Source: Escherichia coli
Lineage (GTDB): Bacteria > Pseudomonadota > Gammaproteobacteria > Enterobacterales > Enterobacteriaceae
Reading direction: 5' to 3' (one strand)
DNA: 64,000 nucleotides
Assembly: GCF_041248615.1 (NCBI RefSeq)
Contig: NZ_CP158426.1
In this document: piece by piece, positions 5,661 to 56,948 of the stretch
Position numbering within the stretch: the first letter of the stretch is position 1
How the letters are laid out: every line of letters begins with the position of its first letter
Made by a program: the position numbers and the translations under genes
The notes under the pieces: generated by a model
Seen by the model: the letters and a program-made list of their open reading frames with translations, nothing else
Database searches by the model: none
What the model was told of the DNA's origin: nothing

Positions 5661-6554
5661 ATGACGAATTTAAAAGCAGTTATTCCTGTAGCGGGTCTTG
5701 GGATGCATATGTTGCCTGCCACTAAGGCGATTCCCAAAGAGATGCTACCGATCGTCGATAAGCCAATGATTCAGTACATCGTTGACGAGATTGTGGCTGC
5801 AGGGATCAAAGAAATCCTCCTGGTAACTCACGCTTCCAAGAACGCGGTCGAAAACCACTTCGACACCTCTTATGAATTAGAATCTCTCCTTGAACAGCGC
5901 GTGAAGCGTCAACTGCTGGCGGAAGTACAGTCCATTTGCCCGCCGGGCGTGACAATTATGAACGTGCGTCAGGGCGAACCTTTAGGTTTGGGCCACTCCA
6001 TTTTATGTGCACGACCTGCCATTGGTGACAATCCATTTGTCGTGGTGCTGCCAGACGTTGTGATCGACGACGCCAGCGCCGACCCGCTGCGCTACAACCT
6101 TGCTGCCATGATTGCGCGCTTCAACGAAACGGGCCGCAGCCAGGTGCTGGCAAAACGTATGCCGGGTGACCTCTCTGAATACTCTGTCATCCAGACCAAA
6201 GAGCCGCTGGACCGCGAAGGTAAAGTCAGCCGCATTGTTGAATTCATCGAAAAACCGGATCAGCCGCAGACGCTGGACTCAGACATCATGGCCGTTGGTC
6301 GCTATGTGCTTTCTGCAGATATTTGGCCGGAACTTGAACGCACTCAGCCTGGTGCATGGGGGCGTATTCAGCTGACTGATGCCATCGCTGAACTGGCGAA
6401 AAAACAGTCCGTTGATGCCGTGCTGATGACAGGTGACAGCTACGACTGCGGTAAAAAAATGGGGTATATGCAGGCATTTGTGAAGTATGGACTACGCAAC
6501 CTGAAAGAAGGGGCGAAGTTCCGTAAAGGGATTGAGAAGCTGTTAAGCGAGTAA
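5661..6554 (+). CDS. galF: UTP-glucose-1-phosphate uridylyltransferase paralog GalF
   Basis: Recognised N-terminus [17 protein letters not shown] track start at 5649 is probably an upstream extension. Confidence 0.9.
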
Positions 6555-6596
6555 CAAATTCCTGACTGGAAGTGTCGGTCAGTAAGTAATTAAAAA

Positions 6597-6658
6597 CGGC
6601 AGTGAAGATTCATAGCATAAGTTTTGCTCATTGAATCTCACTGCCGTTGTCTTTTTTA
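6597..6658 (+). terminator. Putative rho-independent terminator after galF (long imperfect stem, then T-run)
   Basis: cggcagtgaagattca ... tgaatctcactgccg inverted repeat followed by ttgtctttttt. Confidence 0.5.
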
Positions 6659-6814
6659 TAAGTACAATAAAAACAGCATGTTAGCTTGCAATCATAGTTC
6701 AAATTTTTCCAGGATTTTCCTTGTTTCTACAGCTGTTTGGTAAGACAATTAGCGTTTGAATTTTTCGGATTTGGCACGAGTGGGTTACGCTCGTCACATC
6801 GTGGAAATGTACGC

Positions 6815-6853
6815 AGTACTCTGGTAGCTGTTAAGCCAGGGGCGGTAGCGTGC
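6815..6853 (+). promoter_or_regulatory. JUMPstart element with ops (RfaH-dependent antitermination) site upstream of the O-antigen operon
   Basis: agtactctggtagctgttaagccaggggcggtagcgtg; ops core GGCGGTAGCGTG at 6841-6852. Confidence 0.75.
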
Positions 6854-6926
6854 ATTAATGCATCTATTAATCAAATCTGGAGCAGTCTATTTCACAGCAT
6901 GCTCTCTGGCTATATGGAATAAAAAA

Positions 6927-8012
6927 GTGAAGATACTTGTTACTGGTGGCGCAGGATTTATTGGTTCTGCTGTTGTTCGTCACATAATAAATAATACGCA
7001 AGATAGTGTTGTTAATGTCGATAAATTAACATACGCCGGAAACCTGGAATCACTCGCTGAAATTTCTGATTCTGAACGTTATTCATTTGAGCATGCAGAT
7101 ATCTGCGATGCCGAAGCGATGGCTCGTATTTTCGCACAGCACCAGCCAGACGCGGTGATGCACCTGGCAGCAGAGAGCCACGTTGACCGCTCAATAACTG
7201 GCCCTGCGGCATTTATTGAAACCAATATTGTGGGTACTTATGTTCTTTTAGAAGCGGCGCGCAATTATTGGTCTGGTCTGGATGATGAAAAGAAAAAAAA
7301 CTTCCGTTTTCATCATATTTCTACTGATGAGGTGTATGGTGACTTACCCCATCCGGATGAAGTAAATAGCAATGAAACGTTGCCGCTATTTACGGAAACG
7401 ACAGCATACGCGCCAAGTAGTCCATATTCTGCTTCTAAAGCTTCCAGCGATCATTTGGTTCGCGCATGGAAACGTACTTATGGTTTACCGACCATTGTGA
7501 CTAATTGCTCGAACAACTATGGTCCTTATCATTTCCCGGAAAAGCTTATTCCACTGGTTATTCTTAATGCACTGGAAGGTAAGGCATTACCTATTTATGG
7601 CAAAGGAGATCAGATCCGCGACTGGTTGTATGTAGAGGATCATGCTCGAGCGTTATATACCGTCGTAACCGAAGGTAAAGCGGGCGAAACTTATAACATT
7701 GGTGGACACAACGAAAAGAAAAACATCGACGTAGTGTTCACTATTTGTGATTTGTTGGATGAGATAGTCCCGAAAGAGAAATCTTATCGTGAGCAAATTA
7801 CCTATGTTGCTGATCGCCCAGGGCATGATCGCCGTTATGCAATTGATGCCGATAAAATTAGCCGCGAATTGGGCTGGAAACCGCAAGAAACGTTTGAGAG
7901 CGGTATTCGTAAAACGGTGGAATGGTATCTGGCTAATACAAATTGGGTTGAGAATGTGAAAAGCGGTGCTTATCAGTCGTGGATTGAACAGAACTATGAG
8001 GGCCGCCATTAA
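6927..8012 (+). CDS. rmlB: dTDP-glucose 4,6-dehydratase RmlB
   Basis: N-terminus [16 protein letters not shown] (GTG start), SDR-extended family; ORF track start 6858 likely too far upstream. Confidence 0.9.
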
Positions 8013-8911
8013 TGAATATCCTCCTATTCGGCAAAACAGGGCAGGTAGGTTGGGAACTGCAGCGTGCTCTGGCACCGCTGGGTAATCTGATTGCTCTTGA
8101 TGTTCACTCCACTGATTATTGTGGTGATTTTAGTAATCCCGAAGGTGTAGCTGAAACTGTCAAAAAAATTCGCCCTGATGTTATTGTTAATGCGGCTGCT
8201 CACACTGCAGTAGACAAAGCGGAATCAGAACCGGAATTTGCACAATTACTTAACGCGACAAGTGTCGAAGCGATTGCAAAAGCAGCCAATGAAGTCGGCG
8301 CTTGGGTTATTCACTACTCTACTGACTACGTATTTCCGGGAACCGGTGAAATACCGTGGCAGGAGACGGATGCTACAGCACCTTTGAATGTTTATGGTGA
8401 AACTAAACTAGCCGGAGAAAAAGCGTTACAGAAACATTGCGCGAAGCATATTATTTTCCGTACCAGCTGGGTATATGCAGGTAAAGGAAATAACTTCGCC
8501 AAAACAATGTTGCGTCTGGCAAAAGAGCGCGAAGAACTGGCTGTGATAAACGATCAGTTTGGCGCACCAACAGGTGCCGAATTGCTGGCTGATTGCACCG
8601 CTCATGCCATTCGCGTAGCAGTAGACAAACCAGAAGTTGCTGGTTTGTACCATCTGGTTGCTGGCGGTACAACAACCTGGCACGATTATGCCGCTCTGGT
8701 ATTTGAAGAAGCGCGCAAAGCAGGGATTAACCTTGCTCTTAACAAACTTAACGCCGTGCCAACAACGGCCTATCCCACACCAGCCCGTCGACCCCATAAC
8801 TCTCGCCTCAATACAGAAAAGTTTCAGCAGAACTTTGCGCTTGTCTTGCCTGACTGGCAGGTGGGTGTGAAACGAATGCTCAACGAATTATTTACGACTA
8901 CGGCAATTTAA
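8012..8911 (+). CDS. rmlD: dTDP-4-dehydrorhamnose reductase RmlD
   Basis: 299-aa [19 protein letters not shown]; 1-nt overlap with rmlB stop. Confidence 0.9.
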   Translation: MNILLFGKTGQVGWELQRALAPLGNLIALDVHSTDYCGDFSNPEGVAETVKKIRPDVIVNAAAHTAVDKAESEPEFAQLLNATSVEAIAKAANEVGAWVIHYSTDYVFPGTGEIPWQETDATAPLNVYGETKLAGEKALQKHCAKHIIFRTSWVYAGKGNNFAKTMLRLAKEREELAVINDQFGAPTGAELLADCTAHAIRVAVDKPEVAGLYHLVAGGTTTWHDYAALVFEEARKAGINLALNKLNAVPTTAYPTPARRPHNSRLNTEKFQQNFALVLPDWQVGVKRMLNELFTTTAI

Positions 8912-8969
8912 CAAATTTTTGCATCTCGCTCATGATGCCAGAGCGGGATGAATTAAAAGGAATGGTGAA

Positions 8970-9848
8970 ATGAAAACGCGTAAAGGTATTATTCTGGCTG
9001 GTGGTTCCGGCACTCGTCTTTATCCTGTGACGATGGCAGTAAGTAAACAACTGCTGCCGATTTATGATAAGCCGATGATTTATTATCCGCTTTCAACGCT
9101 TATGTTAGCGGGTATTCGCGATATTCTTATTATCAGTACGCCACAGGATACGCCGCGTTTCCAACAATTGTTGGGGGACGGGAGCCAGTGGGGGCTTAAT
9201 CTACAGTATAAAGTACAACCGAGTCCGGATGGCCTGGCGCAAGCGTTTATCATTGGTGAAGACTTTATTGGTGGCGATGATTGTGCACTTGTGCTTGGTG
9301 ATAATATCTTCTATGGACACGACTTGCCGAAATTAATGGAAGCTGCTGTTAACAAAGAAAGCGGTGCAACGGTATTTGCTTATCACGTTAATGATCCTGA
9401 ACGTTATGGTGTCGTGGAGTTTGATAATAACGGTACTGCAATTAGCCTGGAAGAAAAACCGCTGGAACCAAAAAGTAACTATGCGGTTACTGGGCTTTAT
9501 TTCTATGACAATGACGTTGTGGAAATGGCGAAAAACCTTAAGCCTTCTGCCCGAGGTGAACTGGAAATTACCGATATTAACCGTATTTATATGGAACAAG
9601 GACGTTTGTCTGTCGCTATGATGGGGCGTGGCTATGCATGGCTGGATACAGGGACGCATCAAAGTCTTATTGAAGCAAGCAACTTCATTGCCACCATTGA
9701 AGAGCGCCAGGGACTAAAGGTTTCCTGTCCGGAAGAAATTGCTTATCGTAAAGGGTTTATTGATGCTGAGCAGGTAAAAGTATTAGCCGAACCGTTGAAG
9801 AAAAATGCTTATGGTCAGTATCTGCTCAAAATGATTAAAGGTTATTAA
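8970..9848 (+). CDS. rmlA: Glucose-1-phosphate thymidylyltransferase RmlA
   Basis: 292-aa [14 protein letters not shown] nucleotidyltransferase motif. Confidence 0.9.
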
Positions 9849-9852
9849 TAAG

Positions 9853-10398
9853 ATGAACGTAATTAAAACTGAAATTCCTGATGTATTAATATTTGAACCA
9901 AAAGTATTTGGGGATGAGCGTGGTTTTTTTATGGAAAGCTTCAATCAGAAAGTTTTCGAAGAAGCTGTGGGGCGGAAGGTTGAATTTGTTCAGGATAACC
10001 ATTCTAAGTCTACTAAAGGAGTAATTAGAGGATTACATTTTCAATTACCACCTTATTCACAGGCAAAATTAGTACGCTGTGTAGTAGGTGAGGTATATGA
10101 CGTTGTTGTTGATATAAGGAAAGATTCTAAAACTTTTGGCAAATGGGTCGGTGTAAATCTTTCTGCTGAAAACAAGCGACAGTTGTGGATTCCAGAAGGA
10201 TTCGCCCATGGTTTTGAAGTGATTAGTGAAGTCGCTCATTTTTTATACAAAACAAATAATTATTATAATGCAACTATGGAAAAAGGTATAAGATGGGATG
10301 ATGAATATTTAGCTATTAATTGGAAAGAAAAAAAAGCGATAATCTCTGAGAAAGACATGAAACAACCATCATTCAGAGAACTTTTTGAGAAAGTTTAA
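9853..10398 (+). CDS. rmlC: dTDP-4-dehydrorhamnose 3,5-epimerase RmlC
   Basis: 181-aa ORF; cupin-like RmlC sequence (DERGFF, RGLHFQ); markedly AT-rich compared with rmlBDA. Confidence 0.85.
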   Translation: MNVIKTEIPDVLIFEPKVFGDERGFFMESFNQKVFEEAVGRKVEFVQDNHSKSTKGVIRGLHFQLPPYSQAKLVRCVVGEVYDVVVDIRKDSKTFGKWVGVNLSAENKRQLWIPEGFAHGFEVISEVAHFLYKTNNYYNATMEKGIRWDDEYLAINWKEKKAIISEKDMKQPSFRELFEKV

Positions 10399-11832
10399 TT
10401 GATGAATAACAAACTAGCCAGGCAAGGATTATTATGGAGCACAATTGAAAGGCTAGGAACGCAAGCCATACAATTATTATTAATGTTGTATTTGGGTAGG
10501 GTTCTTGGACCAAGCTCTTTTGGTTATGTTGGTATGCTAACTTTATTTCTATCATTAGCTCAGGTTCTAATTGATAGTGGATTTAGTGCAGCATTAATTA
10601 GAAAATCGGAGCGTACTGAAAAAGATTATTCGACAGTATTTATATTTAATATTTGTCTATCAATACTAATATATATTGTACTTTATTGTTTATCTTCTTA
10701 TATTGCTTTATTCTATCAAATACCTCTGCTGGAATCTTTACTTGATATTTTAGCATTAACAGTTATAGCAAATGGTCTAACTTTAATCCCCAAGATTCAA
10801 CTCACTGTAGACGTGAATTTTAAGATCCAAGCTAAAAGTTCACTTATCGCTATTACCAGTAGTAGTGTAATAGCGATAACGTTAGCTGCTTTGGGTTATG
10901 GAGTATGGACATTGGTTTTCCAATCGTTATCCTATAGTGTCATAAATTGTATTGTACTGAATATTTATAATCCATGGTATCCAAAAGAGAAATTTTGCTA
11001 TGAAACATTCAAAAAGCTATTTTCATTTAGCAGTAACTTACTAATTGCTGGAGTACTTGAAGCTTTTTATTCAAATATATATCAATTAATTATAGGGAAA
11101 TTTTTTACACCACAGCTTGTAGGGCAATTTACACAGGCTAATCAGATCTCTAGCGTACCTGCAATGACACTTACTAATATTATTCAGAGAGTAACTTATC
11201 CACTTTTTTGTAATATTTATAATGGCAAAGGGAAAATAGATGATGCTTATTTAAACACACTTAAAATTGCAGGCGTTGTAGTTTTTCCAATTCTATTAGG
11301 AATAGGTTTAATCTCGAAGCCATTAGTCTCTGTATTATTAGGAAGTGAGTGGAAATTTACATCTGATATTCTGTTTCTACTTTGTATTGCATTTATGATT
11401 TATCCTATACATGCAATAAATATTAATATCCTACAGGTTCATGGGCGAAGTGATCTTTTTTTGCGTTTGGAAATACTAAAAAAGACATTGATGACAATTA
11501 TTCTTGTCATTACGATGCAAATAAATATAAATGCAATGGTGATTGGTTTAGTTTTACACTCATATCTTTCGTGGTTTTTAAATGGATTATTTAGCCAGAA
11601 AGTATCAACGATCACAATAAGGAAGCAGTTAAAAGAGTTACTACCTATATGGTGTCTATGTTTAATTAGTGGGTTAGGTTCTAACTATATTATAAATGAA
11701 ATAAGTATGGAACCTTTATTAAATATAATATTTACTATTTTATTAAATGCCATTATATACATCACACTAATTCGAATTATGTACAAAGAAATATTTATGA
11801 CTATTATTTCTCTTATAAAAAATAAGGGCTGA
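10399..11832 (+). CDS. wzx: O-antigen flippase Wzx (polysaccharide transporter family)
   Basis: 477-aa highly hydrophobic multi-TM ORF in AT-rich O-antigen cluster, directly after rmlC. Confidence 0.75.
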   Translation: MMNNKLARQGLLWSTIERLGTQAIQLLLMLYLGRVLGPSSFGYVGMLTLFLSLAQVLIDSGFSAALIRKSERTEKDYSTVFIFNICLSILIYIVLYCLSSYIALFYQIPLLESLLDILALTVIANGLTLIPKIQLTVDVNFKIQAKSSLIAITSSSVIAITLAALGYGVWTLVFQSLSYSVINCIVLNIYNPWYPKEKFCYETFKKLFSFSSNLLIAGVLEAFYSNIYQLIIGKFFTPQLVGQFTQANQISSVPAMTLTNIIQRVTYPLFCNIYNGKGKIDDAYLNTLKIAGVVVFPILLGIGLISKPLVSVLLGSEWKFTSDILFLLCIAFMIYPIHAININILQVHGRSDLFLRLEILKKTLMTIILVITMQININAMVIGLVLHSYLSWFLNGLFSQKVSTITIRKQLKELLPIWCLCLISGLGSNYIINEISMEPLLNIIFTILLNAIIYITLIRIMYKEIFMTIISLIKNKG

Positions 11833-11834
11833 AA

Positions 11835-32294: not shown

Positions 32295-32333
32295 AATAAA
32301 AAAGCCCCCGGAAGGTGATCTTCCGGGGGCTTT
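32295..32333 (-). terminator. his operon attenuator terminator hairpin
   Basis: GC-rich inverted repeat agcccccggaag/cttccgggggct followed (minus strand) by a U-run; lies between hisL and hisG. Confidence 0.8.
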
Positions 32334-32394
32334 CTCATGCGTTCATGCACCACTGGAAGATCTGAATGTCTTCCAGCACACATCGCCTGAAAGA

Positions 32395-32445
32395 CTAGTC
32401 AGGATGATGGTGATGATGGTGGTGTTTAAATTGAACGCGTGTCAT
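32395..32445 (-). CDS. hisL: his operon leader peptide HisL (MTRVQFKHHHHHHHPD)
   Basis: Minus-strand reading atgacacgcgttcaatttaaacaccaccatcatcaccatcatcctgactag: seven consecutive His codons. Confidence 0.9.
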   Translation of the reverse strand: MTRVQFKHHHHHHHPD

Positions 32446-35112: not shown

Positions 35113-35198
35113 AGAAAAATTATTATGACAAGCCTCTCATTCTCTTGTCATTTCCCCCCCATTTAGGCACAATGCGCCGCTGTCAAAAAATGACTAAA

Positions 35199-35230
35199 AA
35201 CCGACGTTTCATCAGCGTCGGTTATTTTTT
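35199..35230 (+). terminator. Putative terminator after yeeY
   Basis: accgacg tttcatcag cgtcggt hairpin followed by tattttttg. Confidence 0.5.
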
Positions 35231-35372
35231 GCTTCAAACCAATCATTCATACCAAGAGGCCGGGCTTCGTACCGGATAGATATTTACTAAAAATCGACAG
35301 TTGTTGTCGCTGAGGAATCCAAAAAAATGGGGCAATTTTTTGCTTACGCGACGGTTATCACCGTAAAGGAGA

Positions 35373-43451: not shown

Positions 43452-43510
43452 GCTCATTGTTTCTTTTCTGTGTATCACCGTCATCATTCCCATCTGATAA
43501 CCTATTGAAA

Positions 43511-43954
43511 TTAGCGACAGCCTTCTTCTGTATGCAGCAAGGCAAAAAGTTCTGCAACTCCATTGTTATTAACCGCACTGGTTACTAACACATTGTGCGC
43601 TCCAGCTTCCCGTAACCAACTTTTCACCAAAGATATTTGTTCCATGCTGGCTAAATCTGCTTTGGTGACTACTCCAATGACCGGGCGATTCATTGACGAG
43701 GTAAAGCCTGGCGAAAAAGGGGACCACGGTGCGTCCGCATTAAGCACCAGGGCGATAATGTCCGCTTCGCAGGCGCTGACCAACAGAGCACTGTAGAGGC
43801 TGCGGTTTTCGAGGTATTCGCCTGGTGTATCAATGGTGGTCGGGGACCAGACGATTGCCTGCGTTTTCTGATAATGAATATTTTCGCCACGCAGACATTG
43901 CGTGAGTGACGTTTTTCCGCACTGGCTGGGGCCGATGAGCATCATACGTTGCAT
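43511..43954 (-). CDS. pduV: Propanediol utilisation GTPase PduV (EutP/PduV family)
   Basis: 147-aa ORF with P-loop [10 protein letters not shown]; last gene of pdu operon here. Confidence 0.85.
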
Positions 43955-43958
43955 AACG

Positions 43959-44309
43959 TCAGGTCCGCGTAATGGGGCAGGCGGTAAAGCGCATCATTTC
44001 ACCCAGCGTACGGGTAACCTGGCTAAGTGCATATTCAATGGCAGAAACATCACCAGTCAGCACTACGGCACCGGTAAAACGATCAAGAAAACCGATCTCT
44101 ACAGCGCCTGATTTTGTGGCGATATCACATGCGATGATAGATGCTTCGCTGGGGGTAATTGTCAGAATGCCAATAGCAGAAACGGTGTCTGGTAAACCCA
44201 ATTTCTTAAACAGATCCTTCCCTGGATTGGCGATGACATGTGCCAGCGTGACCTGCTTACCAGGGACATATTCCTGAATCATCCGTTCAGTTGTGTGCTG
44301 AGTTGTCAT
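43959..44309 (-). CDS. pduU: Microcompartment shell protein PduU (circularly permuted BMC domain)
   Basis: [29 protein letters not shown]; 116 aa from internal Met, removing the overlap with pduT. Confidence 0.85.
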
Positions 44310-44863
44310 TATCCCTCCACCATCTGACGCCACATGGCTTCATGTGGACGGGCAATCACCGACCGATAGACCAACAAACCTTTTTCTCCCGCACGCTCGC
44401 TGGCGACAGAGACCGCGTTATTAACATCTGAAATATCGCCAGCAACCACCATGTAGCATTTACCGCCAATGCCAAAAGCCATATGCACGCGAACAAGAAT
44501 GACATTCGCAGCTTTGACAGCACAATCGGCAGCGTCAATGCAGGCGGCGACACTCCAGGTTTCGACTACGCCGACAGCCCGGTGCTGTTCAACTTGGTTC
44601 AGTCCGCTGGTTGCAGAAAGGAGGCTGGGATGAATATTCGGCAGGACAAGACTGTCGACCAGCATTTCACCAGCAAGGGAAGCACCGCTGTTGATGGCCT
44701 GTTGCACCGCGCCCACATCGCCACCGAGCATCAGCAGAAATTTTCCGGGGCATAGCGTTTTGCTGACCAGTAACTCAACGTTGGCGCTTTTCAGCATGGC
44801 GTCGCCGGTTTCCATCCCTTTCGCGATACTGCTAAGTTCTAAAATACCTACCGCTTTCGACAT
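44309..44863 (-). CDS. pduT: Microcompartment shell protein PduT (tandem BMC, Fe-S)
   Basis: 184-aa ORF with two BMC-like repeats ([29 protein letters not shown]). Confidence 0.88.
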
Positions 44864-44865
44864 CG

Positions 44866-46209
44866 TTAACCTCTCACAAGCGTAATCGCGTTTTCTGTCA
44901 CATCGCTGACCATGCCATCAATACTGGCATGAATGGGGGCACCTAATGTGCCGTGTGGAATTTGACCTACACATTGCCCATGAACGACGCGATCGCCTTT
45001 TTGTACACACGCAATTGCGCTGGCACCGATGTGCTGGCGTAACAATAACGTCACTTTTTCGGTCTGAGGCACCTGTTCAGACAATGGCGCATCCTGATAC
45101 CACGGGGTTAAGCCAAGTCTGGTTACCAGCCGTTTTACGGGAATCAGTCGATAATTTGCCATGGGATCTGCAGGATTTAAGGTACCTTCGTAACGGAGAT
45201 TTTGTGCGCGTAATTCTTGCTTAAGCAGGCGGTTTATGCGCATTGGTGAAATTCCTACCGGACAGGCGACGCTGGCGCAGACGTTGCACTCCGAACAGGT
45301 GAGCGCCGTCAGTAACAGTTGTGGCGTAGCGAGCTGTTGGTAGTTAACCGCACGTACTAATAAATGGGGTGCCAGTTCGTGACCGATTAAATGACGTGGG
45401 CAGAGATCGGTACACAAGCGGCATTGCTCACAAACAGTTTTCGCGACGGCAAGTACGCTGCGGTCATTCTGCATTCGACGTTGGATCAGTGAATGAGAGT
45501 TGGGTAAAACCAGCAAGCCGCCAGTGGTTTTGCTGACTGGTGTGTCGAGCGATGTGATCAAACTTCCCATCATCGGCCCGCCATTGATAAAACCAGGAGC
45601 ATCCACTGTTGCGCCGCCCGCCAGCGCCAGGACTTCACGTAAAGACATGCCGATGGGGACGGTTACCGTTATTGGTTTCGCCACTGCACCATTAACGGTG
45701 AGTGTGCGGCGCGTCACTGGATACTGTTGCTCGACGGCTCTGGCAATATTAAGTACGGTTTGAACATTATTGACCACCACACCGACGTTAACGGGTAATG
45801 CAGCGGGTGGAACACGGCGACCAGTTGCCATCCAGATGGTCAGCACTTCGTCTCCTGCGGGGTAAACGTCGGGCAAAATATGCAGGCGGATATCCGGTGG
45901 TAACAGTGGTGTGAGTGCGTTTATTGCCCGTTGATATTTCTCTTTCAGCGCGATGATTCCGCTACTGGCCCCGGTGGCTTTCATCGCATAGTGAACACCG
46001 CGAAGCAGGCGGCTGGCTTGCTGCGCCATTAACTGTTGATCCACTTTCAACATTGGTTCGCATTCCGCCGCATTCACCAGGAACGTGTCAACACGCGCTT
46101 GTAGCTTAATATGGGTTGGGAAACCTGCGCCGCCAGCACCCACGACACCAGCTGCCTGTACTCGCTCGCGGATGGTCTGGTCGTCGCAGGAGGTTAACTC
46201 GACGTTCAT
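44866..46209 (-). CDS. pduS: Cobalamin reductase PduS (RnfC-like flavoprotein with two 4Fe-4S clusters)
   Basis: 447-aa [15 protein letters not shown] and [13 protein letters not shown] ferredoxin-type motifs. Confidence 0.88.
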
Positions 46210-47318
46210 AACAACTCCTCGAGCAGTTCTGCAATAGCGGTGGCATCAGCCGTACGCGGGTTGGTACGCAACGTTGCATCCGCCAGTGCCGCCTGAACCA
46301 TATCTGGTATGCGTATTGACCATTCTGCTTTTTTTTCTTTCAGCACATTGGTAAGAGTCGGTAGCTTACAGGTTGTTTTAAGCTGTTCAATATGTTGAAT
46401 AAGTATATTCAGGCTGGCGGTGTCATTGGCGTTGTCCGGGCATAAATGGCACGTTTTCGCCAGCCGGGCGTAGCGTTTGGCAGCGCGCGGATCGCCAGCA
46501 TTAAAGCGGATAACCGCCGTGAGCAGGAGCGCATTCGCCAGGCCGTGTGGCAGATGAAACTGTCCGCCGAGTTGATGAGCAATTGCATGGTTTAATCCCA
46601 GTCCAGCCTGGCTAAAGGCCATTCCTGCAAGTGTCGATGCATTATGCATTTTGCCACGGGTGGCGAGACAATCGCCTTTCTTCACTGCAGTGGGCAGGTA
46701 TTGAAAAACAATTTGCACGGCTTTTTCGACCAGTGCATCCGTGAAGTCGCTGGCGCGGGGAGAAACATAAGCTTCAAGCGCATGGGTTAAAACATCCATC
46801 CCGGTATTGGCCGTTATCGCCGGTGGCACGCTGACGATCAGAGATGGATCAAGGATCGCGATATCCGGATAAAGTGCATTATCGAAAAGGGGATATTTAA
46901 TCCCTTTCTCAGGATCGCTGATGACACAAGCACTGGTCACTTCGGAACCGGTACCGCTGGTGGTAGGAATGGCTACGCAGGTTTCAATTTCAATGCCACA
47001 CTGGCGACCGAACCAGACAATCGCTTTTGCGGCGTCCAGGGCAGAACCGCCGCCAAAACCGATAACCACATCCGGGCGTAAAGTCTGCATTTGCGCAATG
47101 CCTTTCACCACGGTCTGGATAGTTGGGTCGGGCGTTATTTCGCTAAAAATACTAAGACGATTACTGTCGGGCAGCGCCTGATGCAACGTGTTAATGAGTG
47201 GTGAGCGTGCCAGAAAGACGTCGCAAATAATCCAGATGTGTTTATGAGAGAAACGGCTAAGTACCTTGAGACTTCCCGGTCCGCTGTATAAACGCGTCTG
47301 CAGTGAAAAAGTATTCAT
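46206..47318 (-). CDS. pduQ: 1-propanol dehydrogenase PduQ (iron-containing alcohol dehydrogenase)
   Basis: 370-aa ORF; GFGGGSALDAAKA Fe-ADH motif; 4-nt overlap with pduS. Confidence 0.88.
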   Translation of the reverse strand: MNTFSLQTRLYSGPGSLKVLSRFSHKHIWIICDVFLARSPLINTLHQALPDSNRLSIFSEITPDPTIQTVVKGIAQMQTLRPDVVIGFGGGSALDAAKAIVWFGRQCGIEIETCVAIPTTSGTGSEVTSACVISDPEKGIKYPLFDNALYPDIAILDPSLIVSVPPAITANTGMDVLTHALEAYVSPRASDFTDALVEKAVQIVFQYLPTAVKKGDCLATRGKMHNASTLAGMAFSQAGLGLNHAIAHQLGGQFHLPHGLANALLLTAVIRFNAGDPRAAKRYARLAKTCHLCPDNANDTASLNILIQHIEQLKTTCKLPTLTNVLKEKKAEWSIRIPDMVQAALADATLRTNPRTADATAIAELLEELL

Positions 47319-47328
47319 TTCCGTTTCT

Positions 47329-48714
47329 CTAGCGAATTGAAAAGCCGCTGGTTAACACGCAGCGTCGTGAGCGGGCAAAAGTCCGTGCTGACGTTGTCCC
47401 TTCTCCGGTCGGTGTTGCAATGGTAAAGGTCGTAAAGCCTTCGCCGCCGACGCCAATACCCGCCCAGGAGGGGCCGTTTTTGACAAAGATTGAGGTTTGC
47501 ATAACGCGTGCGGTAAGGTTGAGCCGTGAGACGTTCTGCGAGTGCATAATTGCCGTGTGGTGCAAGCCGTCTTCCACTTTCAGCGCCAGGGTGAGAGCGC
47601 TATCAAAATCGTTGACCTTCACAATGGGCAGCATTGGCATCAGTTGTTCACAAGTAACCCAACTATCATTGGCGTCGACAACAGCAATCAGTAGGCGCGG
47701 CGCTTTTGCGGGCAAAGGGAGGCCTGCCGCTTCCAGCAAGGCTGATGGGCTTTTCCCAACCAGTTTTTTGTTGGCGCTACCGTCTGGCAGGCAAATTGCA
47801 CGCAATTTCTCCGTTTGCTCATAGTTAAGAAGAAGCGCGCCAAAACTTTGCATCTGCTGAATTAAATAATCTGCCACTGATGCCACGACAATCAGGCTTT
47901 TTTCAGCAATACACGGCAGGTTGTAATCAAATGAAGCGCCGTTGATGATGTCCTCGGCGGCTTTCACAATATCCGCCGTTTCATCGACGATGCACGGAGG
48001 GTTACCCGCTCCGGCACCAATCACTTTCTTGCCACTTTTCATTCCCATGGCGACGATCCCCGGACCGCCGGTAATCGCCAGAACGCTGATTTTAGGGTGC
48101 GCCATCATCTGTTCGGTTGCAGCAAAGGTCGGTTCAGATACGGTAACGATCAGGTTATGAATGCCACTACAACGAAACGCGATGTCTTCGATTGTGGTAA
48201 TCAGTTTTAACGAAACGTATTTGGCTCCCGGGTGTGGACTGAAGTAGACGCTATTACCTGCTGCCAGCATGCTGATGCTGTTGTTAATGATGGTTTCCGT
48301 GGGGTTGGTGCTTGGCGTGACCGAGCCAATAACCCCAAACGGGGAGTATTCAAACAAAACCATGCCACCATCACCGGTTAGTGCAGTGGTGGTTAAATCT
48401 TCAATTCCTGGCGTGTTATCAAGTGCCGCTTTGTTTTTTAGGTACTTATCTTCTTTATTTCCCATCCCCGTTTCTTTGGCGCTTTCTTCTGCCAGTTCGG
48501 TCAGGCGGGGTATTAATTCTTCGCGAATGGCGCTGATAATGGCGCTACGGGTTTTAAGCGGGCACTGTTGAAAGCGTAAAAAGGCCTGGTGTGCTGCGCA
48601 GACCGCTTCATCAACAGTCTGGAAAATAGCGTTTCTTTGCATTCGTTGCGTAGCGGGGGCAAGCTGCTCACGCAGAATATTGCGGATCAGTGTTTCTAAT
48701 TCAGAGTTATTCAT
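47329..48714 (-). CDS. pduP: CoA-acylating propionaldehyde dehydrogenase PduP
   Basis: 461-aa aldehyde dehydrogenase-family ORF in conserved position between pduO and pduQ. Confidence 0.88.
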   Translation of the reverse strand: MNNSELETLIRNILREQLAPATQRMQRNAIFQTVDEAVCAAHQAFLRFQQCPLKTRSAIISAIREELIPRLTELAEESAKETGMGNKEDKYLKNKAALDNTPGIEDLTTTALTGDGGMVLFEYSPFGVIGSVTPSTNPTETIINNSISMLAAGNSVYFSPHPGAKYVSLKLITTIEDIAFRCSGIHNLIVTVSEPTFAATEQMMAHPKISVLAITGGPGIVAMGMKSGKKVIGAGAGNPPCIVDETADIVKAAEDIINGASFDYNLPCIAEKSLIVVASVADYLIQQMQSFGALLLNYEQTEKLRAICLPDGSANKKLVGKSPSALLEAAGLPLPAKAPRLLIAVVDANDSWVTCEQLMPMLPIVKVNDFDSALTLALKVEDGLHHTAIMHSQNVSRLNLTARVMQTSIFVKNGPSWAGIGVGGEGFTTFTIATPTGEGTTSARTFARSRRCVLTSGFSIR

Positions 48715-49718
48715 TGGTTTACTCCCACGTTAATTGCCGCCATTGCGCTTTGGGCAATATCCATGTCTTGTTCAACGCTACCACCGCTGATGCCAAGCCC
48801 CCCGAGCAATATTCCGTCACGCCAGAGGGGGAAGCCGCCACCAAAGGTGACGACTTTGCCTTGCATATGGCTTTCGAGCCCGTAAAGCGGCGCGCCGGGT
48901 TGCACGGTATCAGCAAGTTTGTGGGTTGCCGTTTTCATCGCCACGGCAGTCCAGGCTTTTTTCGGTGCCAGTTCACTGCTGACCAACAGGGCATCAGGCA
49001 TCCGCCAGGTAACACTTTCTGTTCCGTTGGCATCAACAATGCTGATGACAACGGGAATATGCAGTTCATCCGCGCGCATTGCCGCACTACGAATGAGCTG
49101 GTGAAGATCCTGAAAAGTGAGCGGCATTGTGCGTTCCTTCAATGCTGGTGTGTGGTTGGCTTTGTGATAACGTTTTGTGATTTCCTGAATTATCAGGTTT
49201 TGATGAGCGACGTTGTCTTCCACGCGGGCGAGGGCATACAGGCAATCGGAAAGTCGGTTGATATAGTGCAGCAAAACATTCCGGACGGTGATTTCCGTTG
49301 TCAGTTCAACCAGACGTCTTTCAGCACGTCGAGCCACCGTGCGGGCGAAATGCATACGGCTTGCAGCTTCACATCGCCCAGGCAGAATGAAGCTGTGAAC
49401 TGGGGGGACGGCGTTCATTGCGCTATCGATCGCGTTTTCCAGCGCGGCAATTTCTTCCGTACCGATGTAACGCAGCTGCGCTGACGGCTGTTCGCTTTCA
49501 CTGGCAAGTTCGGCGCTAAACCAAAATATCTGTTGTTGAATGGCTTCCAGTAAGATGCGATGGCTTTCGATGGCGGTGGCGCAATAACACAGACTGAGTG
49601 TCGCGTTCAGTTCATCCAGCGTGCCATAGGTTTCGACACGTAGATGAGTTTTGCTGACGCGCTGTCCGGTAAATAAAGACGTACTTCCTGAATCACCTGT
49701 TCGGGTATAAATTGCCAT
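48711..49718 (-). CDS. pduO: ATP:cob(I)alamin adenosyltransferase PduO
   Basis: 335-aa ORF; PduO-type N-terminus MAIYTRTGDSGSTSLFTGQRVSK plus C-terminal DUF336-like domain. Confidence 0.88.
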   Translation of the reverse strand: MAIYTRTGDSGSTSLFTGQRVSKTHLRVETYGTLDELNATLSLCYCATAIESHRILLEAIQQQIFWFSAELASESEQPSAQLRYIGTEEIAALENAIDSAMNAVPPVHSFILPGRCEAASRMHFARTVARRAERRLVELTTEITVRNVLLHYINRLSDCLYALARVEDNVAHQNLIIQEITKRYHKANHTPALKERTMPLTFQDLHQLIRSAAMRADELHIPVVISIVDANGTESVTWRMPDALLVSSELAPKKAWTAVAMKTATHKLADTVQPGAPLYGLESHMQGKVVTFGGGFPLWRDGILLGGLGISGGSVEQDMDIAQSAMAAINVGVNQ

Positions 49719-49729
49719 CTTTCAGCTCC

Positions 49730-50005
49730 TTAGCGCGAAAGCGTATCGACAATGCCGACCACTGCCAGGTCGATGGCCTCGTTAGGGCCGGAAAACACAT
49801 GTCTGGCGCTGGAACCACTGCTGAGGAGTACCAACTCACCAACGCCTGCGCCGACTGAATCAACGGCAACTTCGTCGCCGGTTAATGGCGTGAGAGGCAG
49901 TTCGCCGTCAGCACTGACCCGGCGAACCAGCAGCAGTTTTTTCCCGATCAGAGATGGTGATTTTTGCGTGGATACTACCGCGCCAGTGACTCGAGCCAGA
50001 TGCAT
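49730..50005 (-). CDS. pduN: Microcompartment vertex protein PduN (EutN/CcmL pentamer family)
   Basis: 91-aa [30 protein letters not shown]. Confidence 0.88.
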
Positions 50006-50008
50006 AGG

Positions 50009-50500
50009 TTACTCCTGCCTAATTAACTGAATATTTCGGGTAATTGCCGCTTCACGAGCCAGTGCGGTCACACAACATTTCCGCTGTAACACCAGTATTC
50101 CCGAGCTTAACTGTGCGATATCGGCATAACTTAAAAGTCGATCACGATGAAGGTAGATCGGTTGCCCTTGTTCGTCGCACCAGCTTAGCGGTAGACGGGC
50201 GAGAGTCTTCAATTCAATGGCGTTCAGGAAATGACGCTGCAACGACAATTGAATGTGCATTCCCCAGGCTAACGCTTCGTGTATCTGGATTGCTGCTCGA
50301 TCTGACGTTTCGTTCTCCGCAAGTTGTCGCAGCAGCGGCAGATCGACATATCGGATTTGTAATGACGCATACTGATGAACGCTCTCTTGAACGCTGGCGT
50401 CTCGCAGTTGAAAAACAGTCAGCACGAGTGCTTTTCTCGCACGTTGTTTAAGGCGAAAAACCACCTCGTCAACAATACGTTGCATCAGCATGTTATTCAT
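50009..50500 (-). CDS. pduM: Microcompartment structural protein PduM
   Basis: 163-aa ORF in conserved position between pduL and pduN. Confidence 0.8.
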   Translation of the reverse strand: MNNMLMQRIVDEVVFRLKQRARKALVLTVFQLRDASVQESVHQYASLQIRYVDLPLLRQLAENETSDRAAIQIHEALAWGMHIQLSLQRHFLNAIELKTLARLPLSWCDEQGQPIYLHRDRLLSYADIAQLSSGILVLQRKCCVTALAREAAITRNIQLIRQE

Positions 50501-51129
50501 GGCACTGACACCAGTGTGGCAAAAACGTCAGGGCTATCAGCGCCTGCGGCGTTGGCCTCATCGGTATCAATATGCATTTCAAGACGCATATCCGGAGAGA
50601 CGCGAACAGCGACGTTTTCGAATATCAGTCGTCGCTCACCACCTTCAATGGCAACCGCCACTTTATCGCCATGCGTAACGCCATAAATCAGGGCATCCAG
50701 CGGAGACATATGAATATGCCGTTGCGCGACAATGACGCCAGATGTGATCTCCAGTTCCGCAAATGGGCTTATCAAACGAATCCCCGGAGTGCCGCTGAGA
50801 TCGCCTGACATGCGTAGCGGGGCGGTGATCCCTAACGTTCTGGCGTCCGTCCGGGAAATTTCCACCTGGCTTGCATTGCGTAGCGGCCCCAACAAGCGAA
50901 CGTTGTGCAATTTGCCTTTTGGTCCCTCCAGCGTAACAACCTGTTCAGCAGCGAATTGGCCAGGTTGCATTAACGGCTTTTTCTCGCTAATCGGTTGTTC
51001 AGGAAAAAGACGCAAATAATCCGCTGTTGAAAGATGAATATGGCGACTGGAAACGCCCAGTGGGATAGGGCGCTCGCGCATCTCATCCAGAATCTGGCTC
51101 ACTGTTTCCTGCAGGGTTTGTTTATCCAC
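50497..51129 (-). CDS. pduL: Phosphate propanoyltransferase PduL
   Basis: 210-aa ORF, conserved position; PduL/EutD-type acyltransferase. Confidence 0.85.
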   Translation of the reverse strand: MDKQTLQETVSQILDEMRERPIPLGVSSRHIHLSTADYLRLFPEQPISEKKPLMQPGQFAAEQVVTLEGPKGKLHNVRLLGPLRNASQVEISRTDARTLGITAPLRMSGDLSGTPGIRLISPFAELEITSGVIVAQRHIHMSPLDALIYGVTHGDKVAVAIEGGERRLIFENVAVRVSPDMRLEMHIDTDEANAAGADSPDVFATLVSVP

Positions 51130-51131
51130 TG

Positions 51132-51554
51132 CTACTCCCCTCGCTTATTGGCGTACAGGCAAAGTGAGCGGGGCTCACCTTTTTGCCGCTGACATGCCGG
51201 GTCAAGACACAAATTACAACTGATAATCTCTGAGGTGACGGTTGTTGCTGGTGTTTTGCTTGTTTCAACCGTCACGGTCAATGCTTCAATTGTGTGGGGC
51301 AGAATGCCGTCTCCCGGGCGGGCAATCACTTTGTGTGCGACAAGGCCATTTCGCTGTCCGGCGAAACTGGCTCCCGTCGCGATCGCCGCATTAACCGAGG
51401 CGACGTCACCGGTGATTTTGATGAGCGTCCAGCCTGAGCCATTGGTCTTCTCAAGGCCAACCAGCGTGATGGACGCGGCTTTTGCCATAGCGTCTGCGCA
51501 ACTGATGGCGAGAGCCAGACCACTGACTTCAAGTAATCCCAGTGATTGCTTCAC
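51132..51554 (-). CDS. pduK: Microcompartment shell protein PduK (BMC domain with Cys-rich C-terminal tail)
   Basis: 140-aa ORF, N-terminal BMC domain (MKQSLGLLEVSGLALAISCADAMAKAASI), C-terminal CNLCLDPAC. Confidence 0.85.
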   Translation of the reverse strand: MKQSLGLLEVSGLALAISCADAMAKAASITLVGLEKTNGSGWTLIKITGDVASVNAAIATGASFAGQRNGLVAHKVIARPGDGILPHTIEALTVTVETSKTPATTVTSEIISCNLCLDPACQRQKGEPRSLCLYANKRGE

Positions 51555-51577
51555 GCTGTGCTCCTTAGCGAATGGGG

Positions 51578-51853
51578 TTATGCTGATTTAGGTAAAATAG
51601 CCTCAACATCACTGTGTGGGCGCGGGATGACATGGCAGGATTTCACTTCGCCAACGGCGCTTGCGGCGGCGCTTCCTGCATCAACGGCGGCTTTTACTGC
51701 GCCAACATCGCCACGGACCATCACCGTAATCAGACCCGAACCAATCTTTTCATAGCCAACCAGCTGCACGTTGGCGGATTTAACCATGGCATCTGCAGCT
51801 TCAATTGCGCCAACTAACCCTTTTGTTTCAACCAGTCCTAGTGCGTTGTTCAT
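51578..51853 (-). CDS. pduJ: Microcompartment shell protein PduJ (BMC hexamer)
   Basis: 91-aa [32 protein letters not shown]. Confidence 0.9.
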
Positions 51854-51872
51854 ACTGCATTTCTCCTGTGGA

Positions 51873-52223
51873 TTATGAGTGGAGTTCCCGGAAGGGAATC
51901 CCTTTTACCAGGCGGGCAGCGTTAGAGCCAATGCTGCGCCGGGCATGGTTATCTTGTTGATACATCAGCGTAAACAGTGGCGCTGATGCCGGTAAGTTTT
52001 TGTAATGCACAATCAGTTTTTCCTGATCGCAGGCAATGCCAACCAACAGGGGAGATTGACTAGCAGCCAGCCAGGCGCTATCGATAACTTCACCTGACGG
52101 AATGTGTTGAATGCGAAAGGGAATACCTTCCTCTTCAATGCCAAGAAGCACCTCATCCCATATAGTGATGCAGTTACCGATCTCCATGACGACGATGGCT
52201 GGTGCACGCTCTTTACTTTCCAT
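51873..52223 (-). CDS. pduH: Diol dehydratase reactivase small subunit PduH
   Basis: 116-aa ORF, overlaps pduG 3' end; conserved position. Confidence 0.85.
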
Positions 52224-54045
52224 GAATCGACTCCTTGTGCCAGGCGATGAGTAGCCCAGTAGCTACCGCGTTGCGCGGACCTTCGCTACCACGGATATTC
52301 CCCCGTCCGGCGACCAATCGATAATGCGCCAATGCATCGGTGACTAACTGCGGTACTTCGAAATCCAGCGAAGAACCGCCCACCAGAACGACGAACGGAA
52401 TATCGCGAATATTTCCGGCAGGGCTTACCTGACGTAGCGCGCGCAGGGCATTGGTTACGAAGACACGCTCTTTCGCACTGCGGCGGACAGCGCGTACTTT
52501 TTCCAGCGTCAAATCACCGGGAATGGGCACCAGTTCGTCGGGTTTCACTACACAGACGCGGGCAAATACATGGGGGGATAGGGGAGTAGGGAAGAACTGA
52601 ACGCTGCCATCTTCATGGCGTAAGTGGAACAGGCTTTCTACTTTTGCCAACGGGTACTTTTTGATTTCTTCTGCCAGATAACGATCATTTAAGCCCAGCT
52701 CACGAGCGATAATCATCGTTACCATGTCGCCCGCTCCCGCAAGGTGAGTGGCAACAATTTCTCCTTTCTGATTGATGATGGAGGCATCGGTAGAGCCTGC
52801 ACCTAAGTCCAGAATTGCCAGTGGACGTGTGGTTCCAGGGGTAGTCAAGGCCCCCTGAATGGCGGCTTCTGCTTCTGCGCCTCCGACCTGAACATCAACA
52901 TGCAGTTTTTGCTTAATTTCACTGGCGATCATTGCCATTTGCAGACGGTCGGATTTCACCATAGAGGCAATACCCACAGCCTGTTCCAGTGAAAATTCAC
53001 CTGCCAGACCGCCGGTTACGCTGACGGGGACAGAGGTATCTATCGCCAGCAAATCCTGAATAAAAATTTCGTTGCTGGGTTTGTTGGTCAGTTCCGCCAT
53101 GGTCTGGCGAACATGTTCCAGCATTCCGCCGATGTTGGTGCCTGGTTTTCCCGTCACGTTTTCCAGTTTTGGGCACTCACCGACCGCTTTCATAATGGCA
53201 TCGGCACCAGCAGCTACATCAACGCGCGTTGTGCGCCCGGCAGAAAGCAGTTCGATATTTCCGGCGGGTATCGAACGGGCTTTAACGTCGCCAGAAGGCG
53301 TTTTCACTACCACTGCTGAACGGTTGCCGATTAGCGCCCGCGCGACAGGAACAATATTTTTAGTCTCTTCAGCATTGAGGGCGAAAACGGTGGCAATCCC
53401 ATACGGGTTAGACAGGGTTTCGATAACTTTCCCGGGAACGGCAACTTCAATTGCAGCCAGCATGCCGAGCGGAATACGATCGATGTAGAGGACTTCATCA
53501 ACAATAGGTACAGCAATTTCCAGGCGGTTACTGACCAGCACGCCATCGTCGCGTTGCAGAATAACGCCAGTCAGCTGATATCCGGCACGTACGGAGGCGT
53601 TTATCATCGTCGCGATATCGGCAAAATCAAATGCCGATGACACCACCAGGATGTAAGGTGTGTCCGCCGGGCGTGTTAATAACTCTTGCGGAGTGATGGT
53701 GAGCCCTACGCCCAGCCCCACTCCGCCCGGAGTTTTCGGGTTGTGACCGATCATGGTTGATTCAGTGATGATGGTTTCAGTGATGGTTTCCATCGCCACA
53801 TCACCAATGACCGGAGTTGCTTCGTTGATACGAATAAGCGAAATATCGCTAACATTGATGCCGACTTTTTTCGTTGCCTGTGCGAGCGCCTCCTGAATAC
53901 CATGGACGTTACGCAACGTACCTTTAATTCCGGTGGTTTCCGCCAGGGCGCTACTCACGAACGACAACTCTCCAGTTGCACTGAGCGTTGCCAGCGCAAC
54001 CTCTGTTGATGAGTTGCCGATATCAATGCCTGCTATATATCGCAT
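52213..54045 (-). CDS. pduG: Diol dehydratase reactivase large subunit PduG
   Basis: 610-aa ORF, MRYIAGIDIGNSSTEVALA actin-like ATPase N-terminus. Confidence 0.9.
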   Translation of the reverse strand: MRYIAGIDIGNSSTEVALATLSATGELSFVSSALAETTGIKGTLRNVHGIQEALAQATKKVGINVSDISLIRINEATPVIGDVAMETITETIITESTMIGHNPKTPGGVGLGVGLTITPQELLTRPADTPYILVVSSAFDFADIATMINASVRAGYQLTGVILQRDDGVLVSNRLEIAVPIVDEVLYIDRIPLGMLAAIEVAVPGKVIETLSNPYGIATVFALNAEETKNIVPVARALIGNRSAVVVKTPSGDVKARSIPAGNIELLSAGRTTRVDVAAGADAIMKAVGECPKLENVTGKPGTNIGGMLEHVRQTMAELTNKPSNEIFIQDLLAIDTSVPVSVTGGLAGEFSLEQAVGIASMVKSDRLQMAMIASEIKQKLHVDVQVGGAEAEAAIQGALTTPGTTRPLAILDLGAGSTDASIINQKGEIVATHLAGAGDMVTMIIARELGLNDRYLAEEIKKYPLAKVESLFHLRHEDGSVQFFPTPLSPHVFARVCVVKPDELVPIPGDLTLEKVRAVRRSAKERVFVTNALRALRQVSPAGNIRDIPFVVLVGGSSLDFEVPQLVTDALAHYRLVAGRGNIRGSEGPRNAVATGLLIAWHKESIHGK

Positions 54046-54054
54046 AGTTCGTCC

Positions 54055-54573
54055 TTAATCGTCGCCTTTCAGTTTTTTGCGCTCGACATAAAGTTCCGCA
54101 GCTTCACGGACAAATGCAGCACAAATTTTGGCCTGATAACGCCGTTCAAGATCGTCAGCAATGGCAATAAGTTCTTGCTTAGTCGAACGATAAGGGCGTA
54201 ACGCATTGTAGATTTCGAGGATGCGATCATCCGGTACTGAGGTAAGCTCAGCGGCGCGTTCAAAATTCATCGCCAGGCGATCGCGACCAGCATCTCTGGC
54301 AATCGCGGCCTGAATACGCAATGTTTCAGGGGTTATACGCATATCCTGGGCGGTGACGTTATCGCTGAGTACATTTTCCAGAGTGAAATCGTCGAGCGTT
54401 TTATTGGTCGCCGTTTTAACCCATTCCGGATGTTTATTTGCCAGCGGATAATCCGTCACTTTGGCGCTCTGTATTGACGCGTTGGGTGCCGCAGAAACAG
54501 GAGCTGCATCCTGTAAACTGTTCATGCGATTCAACACGTCCCTGACCATCGACTCAATTGCATCGGTATTCAT
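54055..54573 (-). CDS. pduE: Propanediol dehydratase small (gamma) subunit PduE
   Basis: 172-aa ORF, conserved position. Confidence 0.88.
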   Translation of the reverse strand: MNTDAIESMVRDVLNRMNSLQDAAPVSAAPNASIQSAKVTDYPLANKHPEWVKTATNKTLDDFTLENVLSDNVTAQDMRITPETLRIQAAIARDAGRDRLAMNFERAAELTSVPDDRILEIYNALRPYRSTKQELIAIADDLERRYQAKICAAFVREAAELYVERKKLKGDD

Positions 54574-54587
54574 GAAGGTTTCCTTTG

Positions 54588-55256
54588 TTAAAACGTCACG
54601 CGCAGTTCTTGCGGTTTTTTGCCAGTGACCACGTACTTCGTCTCTTTAATATGCAAAATGGCAGATTTGGCCTGGTATTTCGGCCGCGCCATTTGATCGT
54701 TGAGGGTCGGCACCGGTTGTGGAGACTCACGCTTTGCATAACGCGCGGCGTTTTTGCCAATCTGACGATAAGTTTCCAGCGTCAACAAAGGCGCTTGTGG
54801 GAATAGTTCCAGGTTAGACAAGGGAGGAAGACCTTGCTGGTGGATAACCGTTGTGCCTTTCGACTGAATACCGATAGCAATACCTGAACCACTAAGACGA
54901 TCGCCTTCGACTGCTACGAATGCGACATCGGACGATTTAAAGCAGCGAATCACACGGGCTTTAATGCCTTCTTCTTCGATACCAGCAATCACTTCGCGCA
55001 AGATGTTTTTATGCGGAATACCGATGATATTGACGGTTTGCGCCAGGCCGAACGCCGGGCCTACAGCAATAATGACTTCATCTTGCTGAGTGCCTTGTTG
55101 GGCTTCGCCAATTTCGGCCAGAAAAGTTCCGGTATCTGGCGCGGAAGAGACAGTTGCACAGGCAGGTGCGCGAAATGAAACGGGCTTGTCGCTGGTTTGC
55201 ATTTCTGCCAGCACGTCTTCGATAATCTGACGCAGTAATTTTTCGTTAATTTCCAT
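54588..55256 (-). CDS. pduD: Propanediol dehydratase medium (beta) subunit PduD
   Basis: 222-aa [22 protein letters not shown]. Confidence 0.9.
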
Positions 55257-55265
55257 TTCTCACCC

Positions 55266-56930: not shown

Positions 56931-56948
56931 AAATCTGCCTCAGAGAAT

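Follow-up and report, generated by a model that had tools for sequence, protein, structure and literature searches.

O-antigen expression is a determinant of virulence and serum resistance, and rfaH or ops mutants are attenuated. At ops, the operon polarity suppressor, residue T6 flips out into a pocket in the N-terminal domain of RfaH; the exchanges G4C, G5A, A7T and G8C abolish RfaH recruitment, T11 and G12 drive the pause, and in vitro a minimal ops is enough for RfaH to be recruited (PMC5995543). Bound RfaH hyper-stabilises this pause; after refolding, its KOW domain binds the ribosome, the capture of which is needed before a start codon within ~100 nt of ops (PMC11001881). The ops core, its non-template position in a leader and, as we expect, the RfaH mechanism are common to hlyCABD, kps, rfa/waa, wza (colanic acid), F tra and the locus described here. 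The hly leader is far longer, with ops located 634 nt before hlyC in a leader of 1,616 nt, and some of the ops sites of hlyCABD, kps, rfa, wza and tra carry variant 3′ ends such as GCATG or GCATA.

In the O6 O-antigen operon of E. coli CFT073, RfaH loading at ops was detected by ChIP-seq and the signal was lost in a ΔrfaH strain; RfaH lets polymerase cross the AT-rich genes that are bound by H-NS/StpA in this organism (Hustmyer et al. 2022, mBio, PMC9765446). The CFT073 12-mer, GGCGGTAGCGTG, is identical to that of our sequence and lies 71 nt from the first gene, compared with 74–75 nt here. Moreover, the CFT073 leader on the galF side is homologous to ours up to ops. Past ops the two sequences are unrelated, the first gene being wzx in CFT073 but rmlB in our case.

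The wb* cluster of E. coli O7 strain VW187 matches the present locus both in its serotype genes (O7 wzx/wzy, vioAB, wbbD and manCB) and in its galF–rmlB position. Its leader was reportedly the subject of an experimental study by Marolda and Valvano in 1998, which is said to describe –35 and –10 boxes and an untranslated leader, 173 nt long, in which JUMPstart and two ops-like repeats are found; larger leader stem-loops were reportedly also proposed in 1998. A conserved stem-loop among JUMPstart elements has been reported, and the element has been listed as a candidate structured RNA (Weinberg 2010); a passage of that paper cites Marolda & Valvano 1998 (J Bacteriol 180:3070, PMC107806) for the E. 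coli O7 promoter and leader. The JUMPstart/ops element, its mechanism and the O7 leader have thus already been described, and the element analysed below is a real but ordinary, textbook example.

The JUMPstart element between galF and rmlB

We analysed a stretch of 64 kb (64,000 nt) of an E. coli chromosome, hereafter the window, which comprises wca genes, galF, a 14-gene O7 O-antigen cluster, gnd, ugd, wzzB and his genes. Its 5′ part contains wcaJ to wcaM, the end of the colanic-acid cluster, followed by galF, which is a separate gene upstream of the O-antigen operon. Because the genome NZ_OW967178.1 is collinear with the whole window and nearly identical to it (7 mismatches in 64 kb, and 2 over the 26.9 kb used for annotating the O7 operon), its PGAP annotation was transferred, the window coordinate being the coordinate in the NZ_OW967178.1 locus (L001) minus 13446. 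The features of the region are:

5661–6554, + strand: galF, UTP-glucose-1-phosphate uridylyltransferase / GalU regulator (NCBIfam TIGR01105 at full length, 686.5 bits; NZ_OW967178.1 annotation)
6595–6659, + strand: hairpin (stem 6595–6648) with a U-rich tail (UUGUCUUUUUU, 6649–6659)
6721–6749, + strand: predicted σ70 promoter of the O-antigen operon (TTGTTT at 6721–6726, 17-nt spacer, GACAAT at 6744–6749)
6814–6852, + strand: 39-bp JUMPstart (Rfam RF01707, full model)
6821–6839, + strand: JUMPstart stem-loop (CUGGU at 6821–6825, 9-nt loop, GCCAG at 6835–6839; from the structure line of the Rfam model)
6841–6852, + strand: ops, GGCGGTAGCGTG, an exact match to the 12-nt GGCGGTAGnnTG
6853–6926, + strand: distal leader, 74 nt from ops to rmlB (read directly from the sequence)
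6927–21008, + strand: O7 O-antigen operon, 14 genes, ~14 kb (annotation from NZ_OW967178.1)

The operon consists of rmlB, rmlD, rmlA, rmlC, wzx(O7), vioA, vioB, a glycosyltransferase gene, a hypothetical gene, wzy(O7), a GT4 glycosyltransferase gene, wbbD, manC and manB, in this order. All 14 genes are located on the + strand, as are JUMPstart and ops. The rmlB/rfbB product matches the NCBIfam profile for dTDP-glucose 4,6-dehydratase with 794 bits, and profile searches identified members of the Wzx-type flippase and Wzy-type polymerase families within the operon; the assignment of wzx and wzy to serotype O7 stems from the transferred annotation, not from the family profiles. Between 10 and 19 kb the GC content is 29–34%, compared with ~50–57% in the wca and his genes on either side. 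Across manC and manB (19000–21008), which close the cluster on its 3′ side, it rises from ~30% to 42–56%, a pattern pointing to a mosaic origin or to recombination with their colanic-acid paralogues cpsB/cpsG. The rfaH gene is encoded outside the 64-kb window.

The sequence at 6814–6852, CAGTACTCTGGTAGCTGTTAAGCCAGGGGCGGTAGCGTG, was recognized by the Rfam model for JUMPstart, RF01707, with a score of 61.1 bits (gathering score, the curated threshold, 35) and an E value of 1.3e-11 for the whole window. The match extends over model positions 1–38 of 38, so the window copy is full length, and it has the same 5-bp stem as the model. It also agrees at 38 of 39 bases with the published 39-mer consensus attributed to Hobbs & Reeves 1994, the mismatch being A6818 in place of G. 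This position is variable among E. coli loci: O157, O55 and TCM_B_2 also carry A, and many copies carry G. A match to the 39-mer consensus was absent from 100 shuffled sequences, and a low-threshold Rfam scan of 6500–7000 returned nothing further except a spurious match to a fungal snoRNA (E 0.65). A previous reading of the sequence alone, made without database searches, had described a 39-bp JUMPstart with an ops core at 6815–6853 and had suggested alignment to known JUMPstart sequences as a check. This alignment bears out the element itself, whereas the interval has to be moved one base leftward.

Within the element, ops occupies positions 6841–6852, with the pause position U11 at 6851. It retains the bases needed for recruitment (C3, G4, G5, T6, A7 and G8) as well as the pause-inducing T11-G12, and it is the sole exact copy of GGCGGTAGNNTG on both strands of the 64 kb, with 0.05 expected by chance. 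Together with the shuffles, this count rules out a chance origin of JUMPstart/ops. The element is non-coding and lies on the non-template (coding) strand of the operon. From the end of ops to the GTG start codon of rmlB at 6927 there are 74 nt, exactly the distance given in the sequence-only reading, and this value falls within the ~100-nt limit for ribosome capture (PMC11001881). Allowing up to one mismatch, seven ops matches were found including the true site, all of them on the + strand, where 2.8 would be expected; seven were reached by one of 100 shuffles. Composition is the likely cause of this + strand excess, since the GC skew of this strand is positive. The six one-mismatch sites (9971, 27522, 42070, 55334, 57255 and 62503) were rejected as functional, because they lie within genes or do not share the strand of the neighbouring genes, and none of the six is located in a leader. 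Likewise, ops sites within coding regions were without RfaH binding in CFT073 (PMC9765446).

The mechanical list of open reading frames starts rmlB at an in-frame ATG at 6858, 6 nt past ops, which would lengthen the reading frame by 23 codons. PGAP annotates the start of rmlB in the near-identical genome as GTG 6927. From this codon, the dTDP-glucose 4,6-dehydratase profile aligns over positions 1–360 of 361, and the alignment from residue 1 supports GTG 6927 as the start. The ATG was rejected because it is not conserved in K-12 and because the family profile begins at GTG 6927; it is probably unused.

Two complete E. coli genomes carry the 372-bp spacer between galF and rmlB with 100% identity and about 700 share it at 99% or more, and sensitive blastn matched some part of it in 4797 of 5426 complete E. 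coli genomes. In the most divergent serotypes (O157, O55 and others), the sole aligned piece was query 260–298, corresponding to window positions 6814–6852. We also aligned the spacers from 12 diverse E. coli O-antigen loci, in which the first gene is rmlB, wzx, one of various glycosyltransferase genes or an acetyltransferase gene. JUMPstart stands out in this alignment as the one near-invariant block, while its flanks diverge. The distal leader (6853–6926) is conserved only among clusters with rmlB as first gene; without rmlB in this place, similarity between serotypes stops 1–2 bases past the GTG of ops. In other gammaproteobacteria, ops together with its hairpin mostly precedes wzi, wza, wzz, heptosyltransferase, UDP-GlcNAc 2-epimerase or flippase genes.

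Predicted promoter and untranslated leader

Upstream of JUMPstart, the alignment of the 12 divergent loci contains a conserved TTGTTT/GACAAT block at 6721–6749, which is likely the promoter of the O-antigen operon. TTGT (6721–6724) and AAT (6747–6749) are invariant, the –10 region of O157 and O55 is GATAAT, and the candidate matches 7 of 12 consensus positions. As an alternative, an extended –10 element, TGgTAAGAC, could be read at 6738–6746. Transcription would be expected to start at ~6752–6758. A leader of 173 nt, the length reportedly found for O7, would place the start near 6754, adjoining the conserved promoter block.

A promoter at 6721–6749 implies that JUMPstart is contained in a leader of roughly 170 nt. 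The element would probably lie ~60–100 nt downstream of the promoter and inside the untranslated leader. The sequence-only reading had taken it to mark the start of the O-antigen operon; this holds in the sense that it stands at the head of the 14-gene operon, but transcription should start further upstream. In CFT073, the homologous transcription unit begins 67 nt before ops according to RNA-seq, and a σ70 ChIP peak likewise precedes ops (PMC9765446). A literature search for a mapped transcription start in the JUMPstart/galF region found none.

A consensus promoter scan called no + strand promoter in the galF–rmlB intergenic region, because a match of 7/12 is below its cut-off; the same scan for promoters and terminators returned nothing between manB and gnd. 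These results cannot be taken as proof of absence, as the rules of the scan leave out weak –35 boxes and stems with long loops. The segment from the predicted promoter to JUMPstart also contains a small hairpin, ACGAGUG/CGCUCGU at 6776–6794, with 74% pairing in relatives and with changes on both sides in four pairs.

Hairpins flanking the predicted promoter and alternative explanations

The stem-loop immediately 5′ of ops has a stem of 5 bp, or 7 bp if G-U pairs are included, and contains a GGTAGC repeat (6823–6828) of the GGTAGC within ops (6844–6849). Within E. coli the stem is invariant and hence gives no covariation signal, so that an alignment from this species speaks neither for nor against pairing. 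In a wider survey, one genome per species was scanned for the 14-mer GGGGCGGTAGCGTG and each site was checked for a hairpin with 5 bp or more whose 3′ end coincides with the opening G of the 14-mer. Of 58 gammaproteobacterial ops sites, 42 have such a hairpin in exact register, and 23 arm pairs are represented among them (for instance CAGGU/GCCUG, CAGGA/UCCUG, CAAGA/UCUUG and UUGGA/UCCAG). At other offsets (–6 to +6), only 1–10 of the 58 sites had a hairpin, and the controls were also low, with 10 of 63 chance matches from other phyla and ~8% of random positions. The recurrence of the stem in one register with varied arms, compared with these low controls, indicates that both the stem and its register are under selection.

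The 3′ end of the stem (6839) lies 2 nt before G1 of ops and 12 nt before U11 (6851). Spacing of 12 nt resembles that of nascent-RNA pause hairpins such as the his pause. With this register, the stem could act as a hairpin in the RNA exit channel, and it may be imagined as a working part of the RfaH loading site, either in this form or as a second non-template hairpin. We regard such a role as a tentative idea that is more probably wrong than right by a wide margin. If it held, the stem-loop might prolong or adjust the pause at ops, restrain backtracking or assist in capturing the ribosome, and its role would have been overlooked by in vitro work with minimal ops.

Selection on pairing at these 42 sites, the 5-bp stem at 6821–6839 and the listing of JUMPstart as a candidate structured RNA (Weinberg 2010) could also be taken to mean that JUMPstart acts mainly as structured leader RNA, through factor binding, mRNA stability or translation, and not via non-template DNA. 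We consider this quite improbable, because RfaH reads ops through non-template DNA and a minimal ops works without the 5′ half of the element. Moreover, covariation would look the same whether the hairpin forms in RNA or in single-stranded non-template DNA, and in E. coli the invariant stem provides no such signal at all. The 191-nt leader as a whole folds no better than shuffled sequences (z –0.5), and long-range helices, including one that would pair 6806–6814 with 6848–6856 across ops, were rejected, since they are only 54–74% paired in relatives. The abrupt loss of serotype homology 1–2 bases past the ops GTG in clusters without rmlB first, together with the many blastn matches that stop at query 297–299, would suit a different explanation, in which the 39 bp merely form a conserved junction for recombination, retained because the exchangeable O-antigen cassette is swapped at this 5′ border, and have no regulatory activity of their own in this strain. 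A neutral junction, however, would not stay invariant over 39 bp amid drifting flanks, the same ops precedes unrelated polysaccharide loci in other genera, and RfaH is bound in vivo at the ops of CFT073; a role in crossover is compatible with regulation and is probably a by-product of it. That the element is nothing but a junction therefore appears extremely unlikely to us.

A further alternative concerns the hairpin between galF and the promoter, which the sequence-only reading had described as strong and terminator-like (6597–6658) and as separating two transcription units. The structure is indeed strong, and the interval given for it is a fair approximation: its minimum free energy is –30 kcal/mol (z = –6.39), and none of 200 shuffles folds as well. 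It begins 41 nt past the galF stop codon, and the G+C-rich base of its stem is followed by a tail in which 9 of 11 nt are U. Of the 12 E. coli loci, 9 form a similar hairpin (–18 to –34 kcal/mol). The main helix is 82.5% paired on the alignment, with five pairs changed on both sides, and its covariation score is 0.187, compared with 0.106 in shuffles and at most 0.087 with the partners slid; none of 500 shuffles reached the observed value. Being strong and kept via compensatory changes, the hairpin is a plausible and indeed probable intrinsic terminator of galF. Its location between the galF stop codon and the conserved promoter block makes it reasonable to predict two transcription units, galF and the O-antigen operon.

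Alternatively, this hairpin could stabilise the 3′ end of the mRNA, or it could be a palindrome bound by a protein, with read-through from galF feeding O-antigen transcription. In line with such a function, the stem, with about 21 pairs and an internal stem, is longer than usual, the U-tract is interrupted (UUGUCUUUUUU), and the hairpin is weak or absent in O157, O55 and TCM_B_2 (–10 to –12 kcal/mol). In addition, a simple terminator scan did not call it, which is explained by a loop and a bulge outside the rules of the scan. Against it, a G+C-rich stem base directly before the U-rich tail, 41 nt after a stop codon and upstream of a conserved promoter block, is the normal anatomy of an intrinsic terminator, the compensatory changes preserve the hairpin, and stabilisation of the upstream mRNA would be compatible with termination. 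We therefore view a hairpin that does not terminate as unlikely.

Taken together, we are highly confident in identifying the element as the JUMPstart/ops signal carried by the untranslated leader of the O-antigen (rfb/wb*) operon of E. coli O7, and the window contains no sequence evidence that contradicts this explanation. The ops at 6841–6852 almost certainly serves the O7 operon as its RfaH loading site. The RfaH dependence of the operon is taken from the literature on homologous leaders. The steps at ops itself, from the pause to the recruitment of a ribosome, are established in the literature; for the present locus, we propose the following sequence of events by analogy. Transcription would begin at the weak but conserved σ70 promoter at ~6721–6749, past the hairpin that probably terminates galF transcription, and RNA polymerase would pause at U11 (6851) while transcribing GGCGGTAGCGTG. 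The exposed non-template strand would then form a small hairpin with a C3:G8 pair and a flipped-out T6, which autoinhibited RfaH could recognise. Its N-terminal domain would lock onto polymerase, while the C-terminal domain would refold to a β-barrel and recruit a ribosome. As in homologous leaders, the RfaH-modified polymerase should exclude NusG and resist pausing, Rho-dependent termination and H-NS/StpA roadblocks, so that transcription, with polarity suppressed, would run through all ~14 kb of the AT-rich operon, from rmlB as far as manB. If ops or RfaH were lacking, under-expression would be expected for the distal genes (wzx, wzy and the transferase genes). The element would accordingly mark the onset of RfaH-dependent anti-termination of the O7 operon. 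It also lies at the 5′ border of the serotype cassette that is exchanged between strains, and would separate the galF and O-antigen transcription units.

Additional observations in the survey and in the window

The survey of ops sites also revealed a distinct ops-hairpin subtype with a longer loop in Pseudomonas, Stutzerimonas and Marinobacterium (L022, L052, L055, L123 and L126–L128). It has the form TTCTCAGGAAA..ACGG.AAATCCTG, then GGGCGGTAGCGTG, and some copies precede genes for a β-CASP metallo-hydrolase or a Pol-β-type nucleotidyltransferase. In E. coli Ec1115 (L011:592–714), a JUMPstart is located upstream of wzi (group 1 capsule); a 40-aa “hypothetical protein” annotated across this JUMPstart on the other strand is probably not a real gene.

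Elsewhere in the window, three further Rfam families scored above threshold: a His leader at 32296–32419 (– strand, 131.6 bits), which is adjoined by a yefM-yoeB toxin-antitoxin pair, STnc240 at 35158–35232 (+ strand, 68.2 bits) and STnc230 at 59422–59505 (– strand, 71.1 bits). A propanediol-utilisation (pdu) microcompartment operon extends from pduA to pduV on the – strand (~43500–58050) and abuts tmaR; neither pduW nor pduX is annotated in the collinear genome NZ_OW967178.1. After pocR, a cobalamin riboswitch was found at 60572–60746 (+ strand, 109 bits). Downstream of it, to ~63900, a hypothetical reading frame of 145 aa is directly followed by cobU, cobS and cobT, which suggests that the cbi genes normally located between the riboswitch and cobU are missing.
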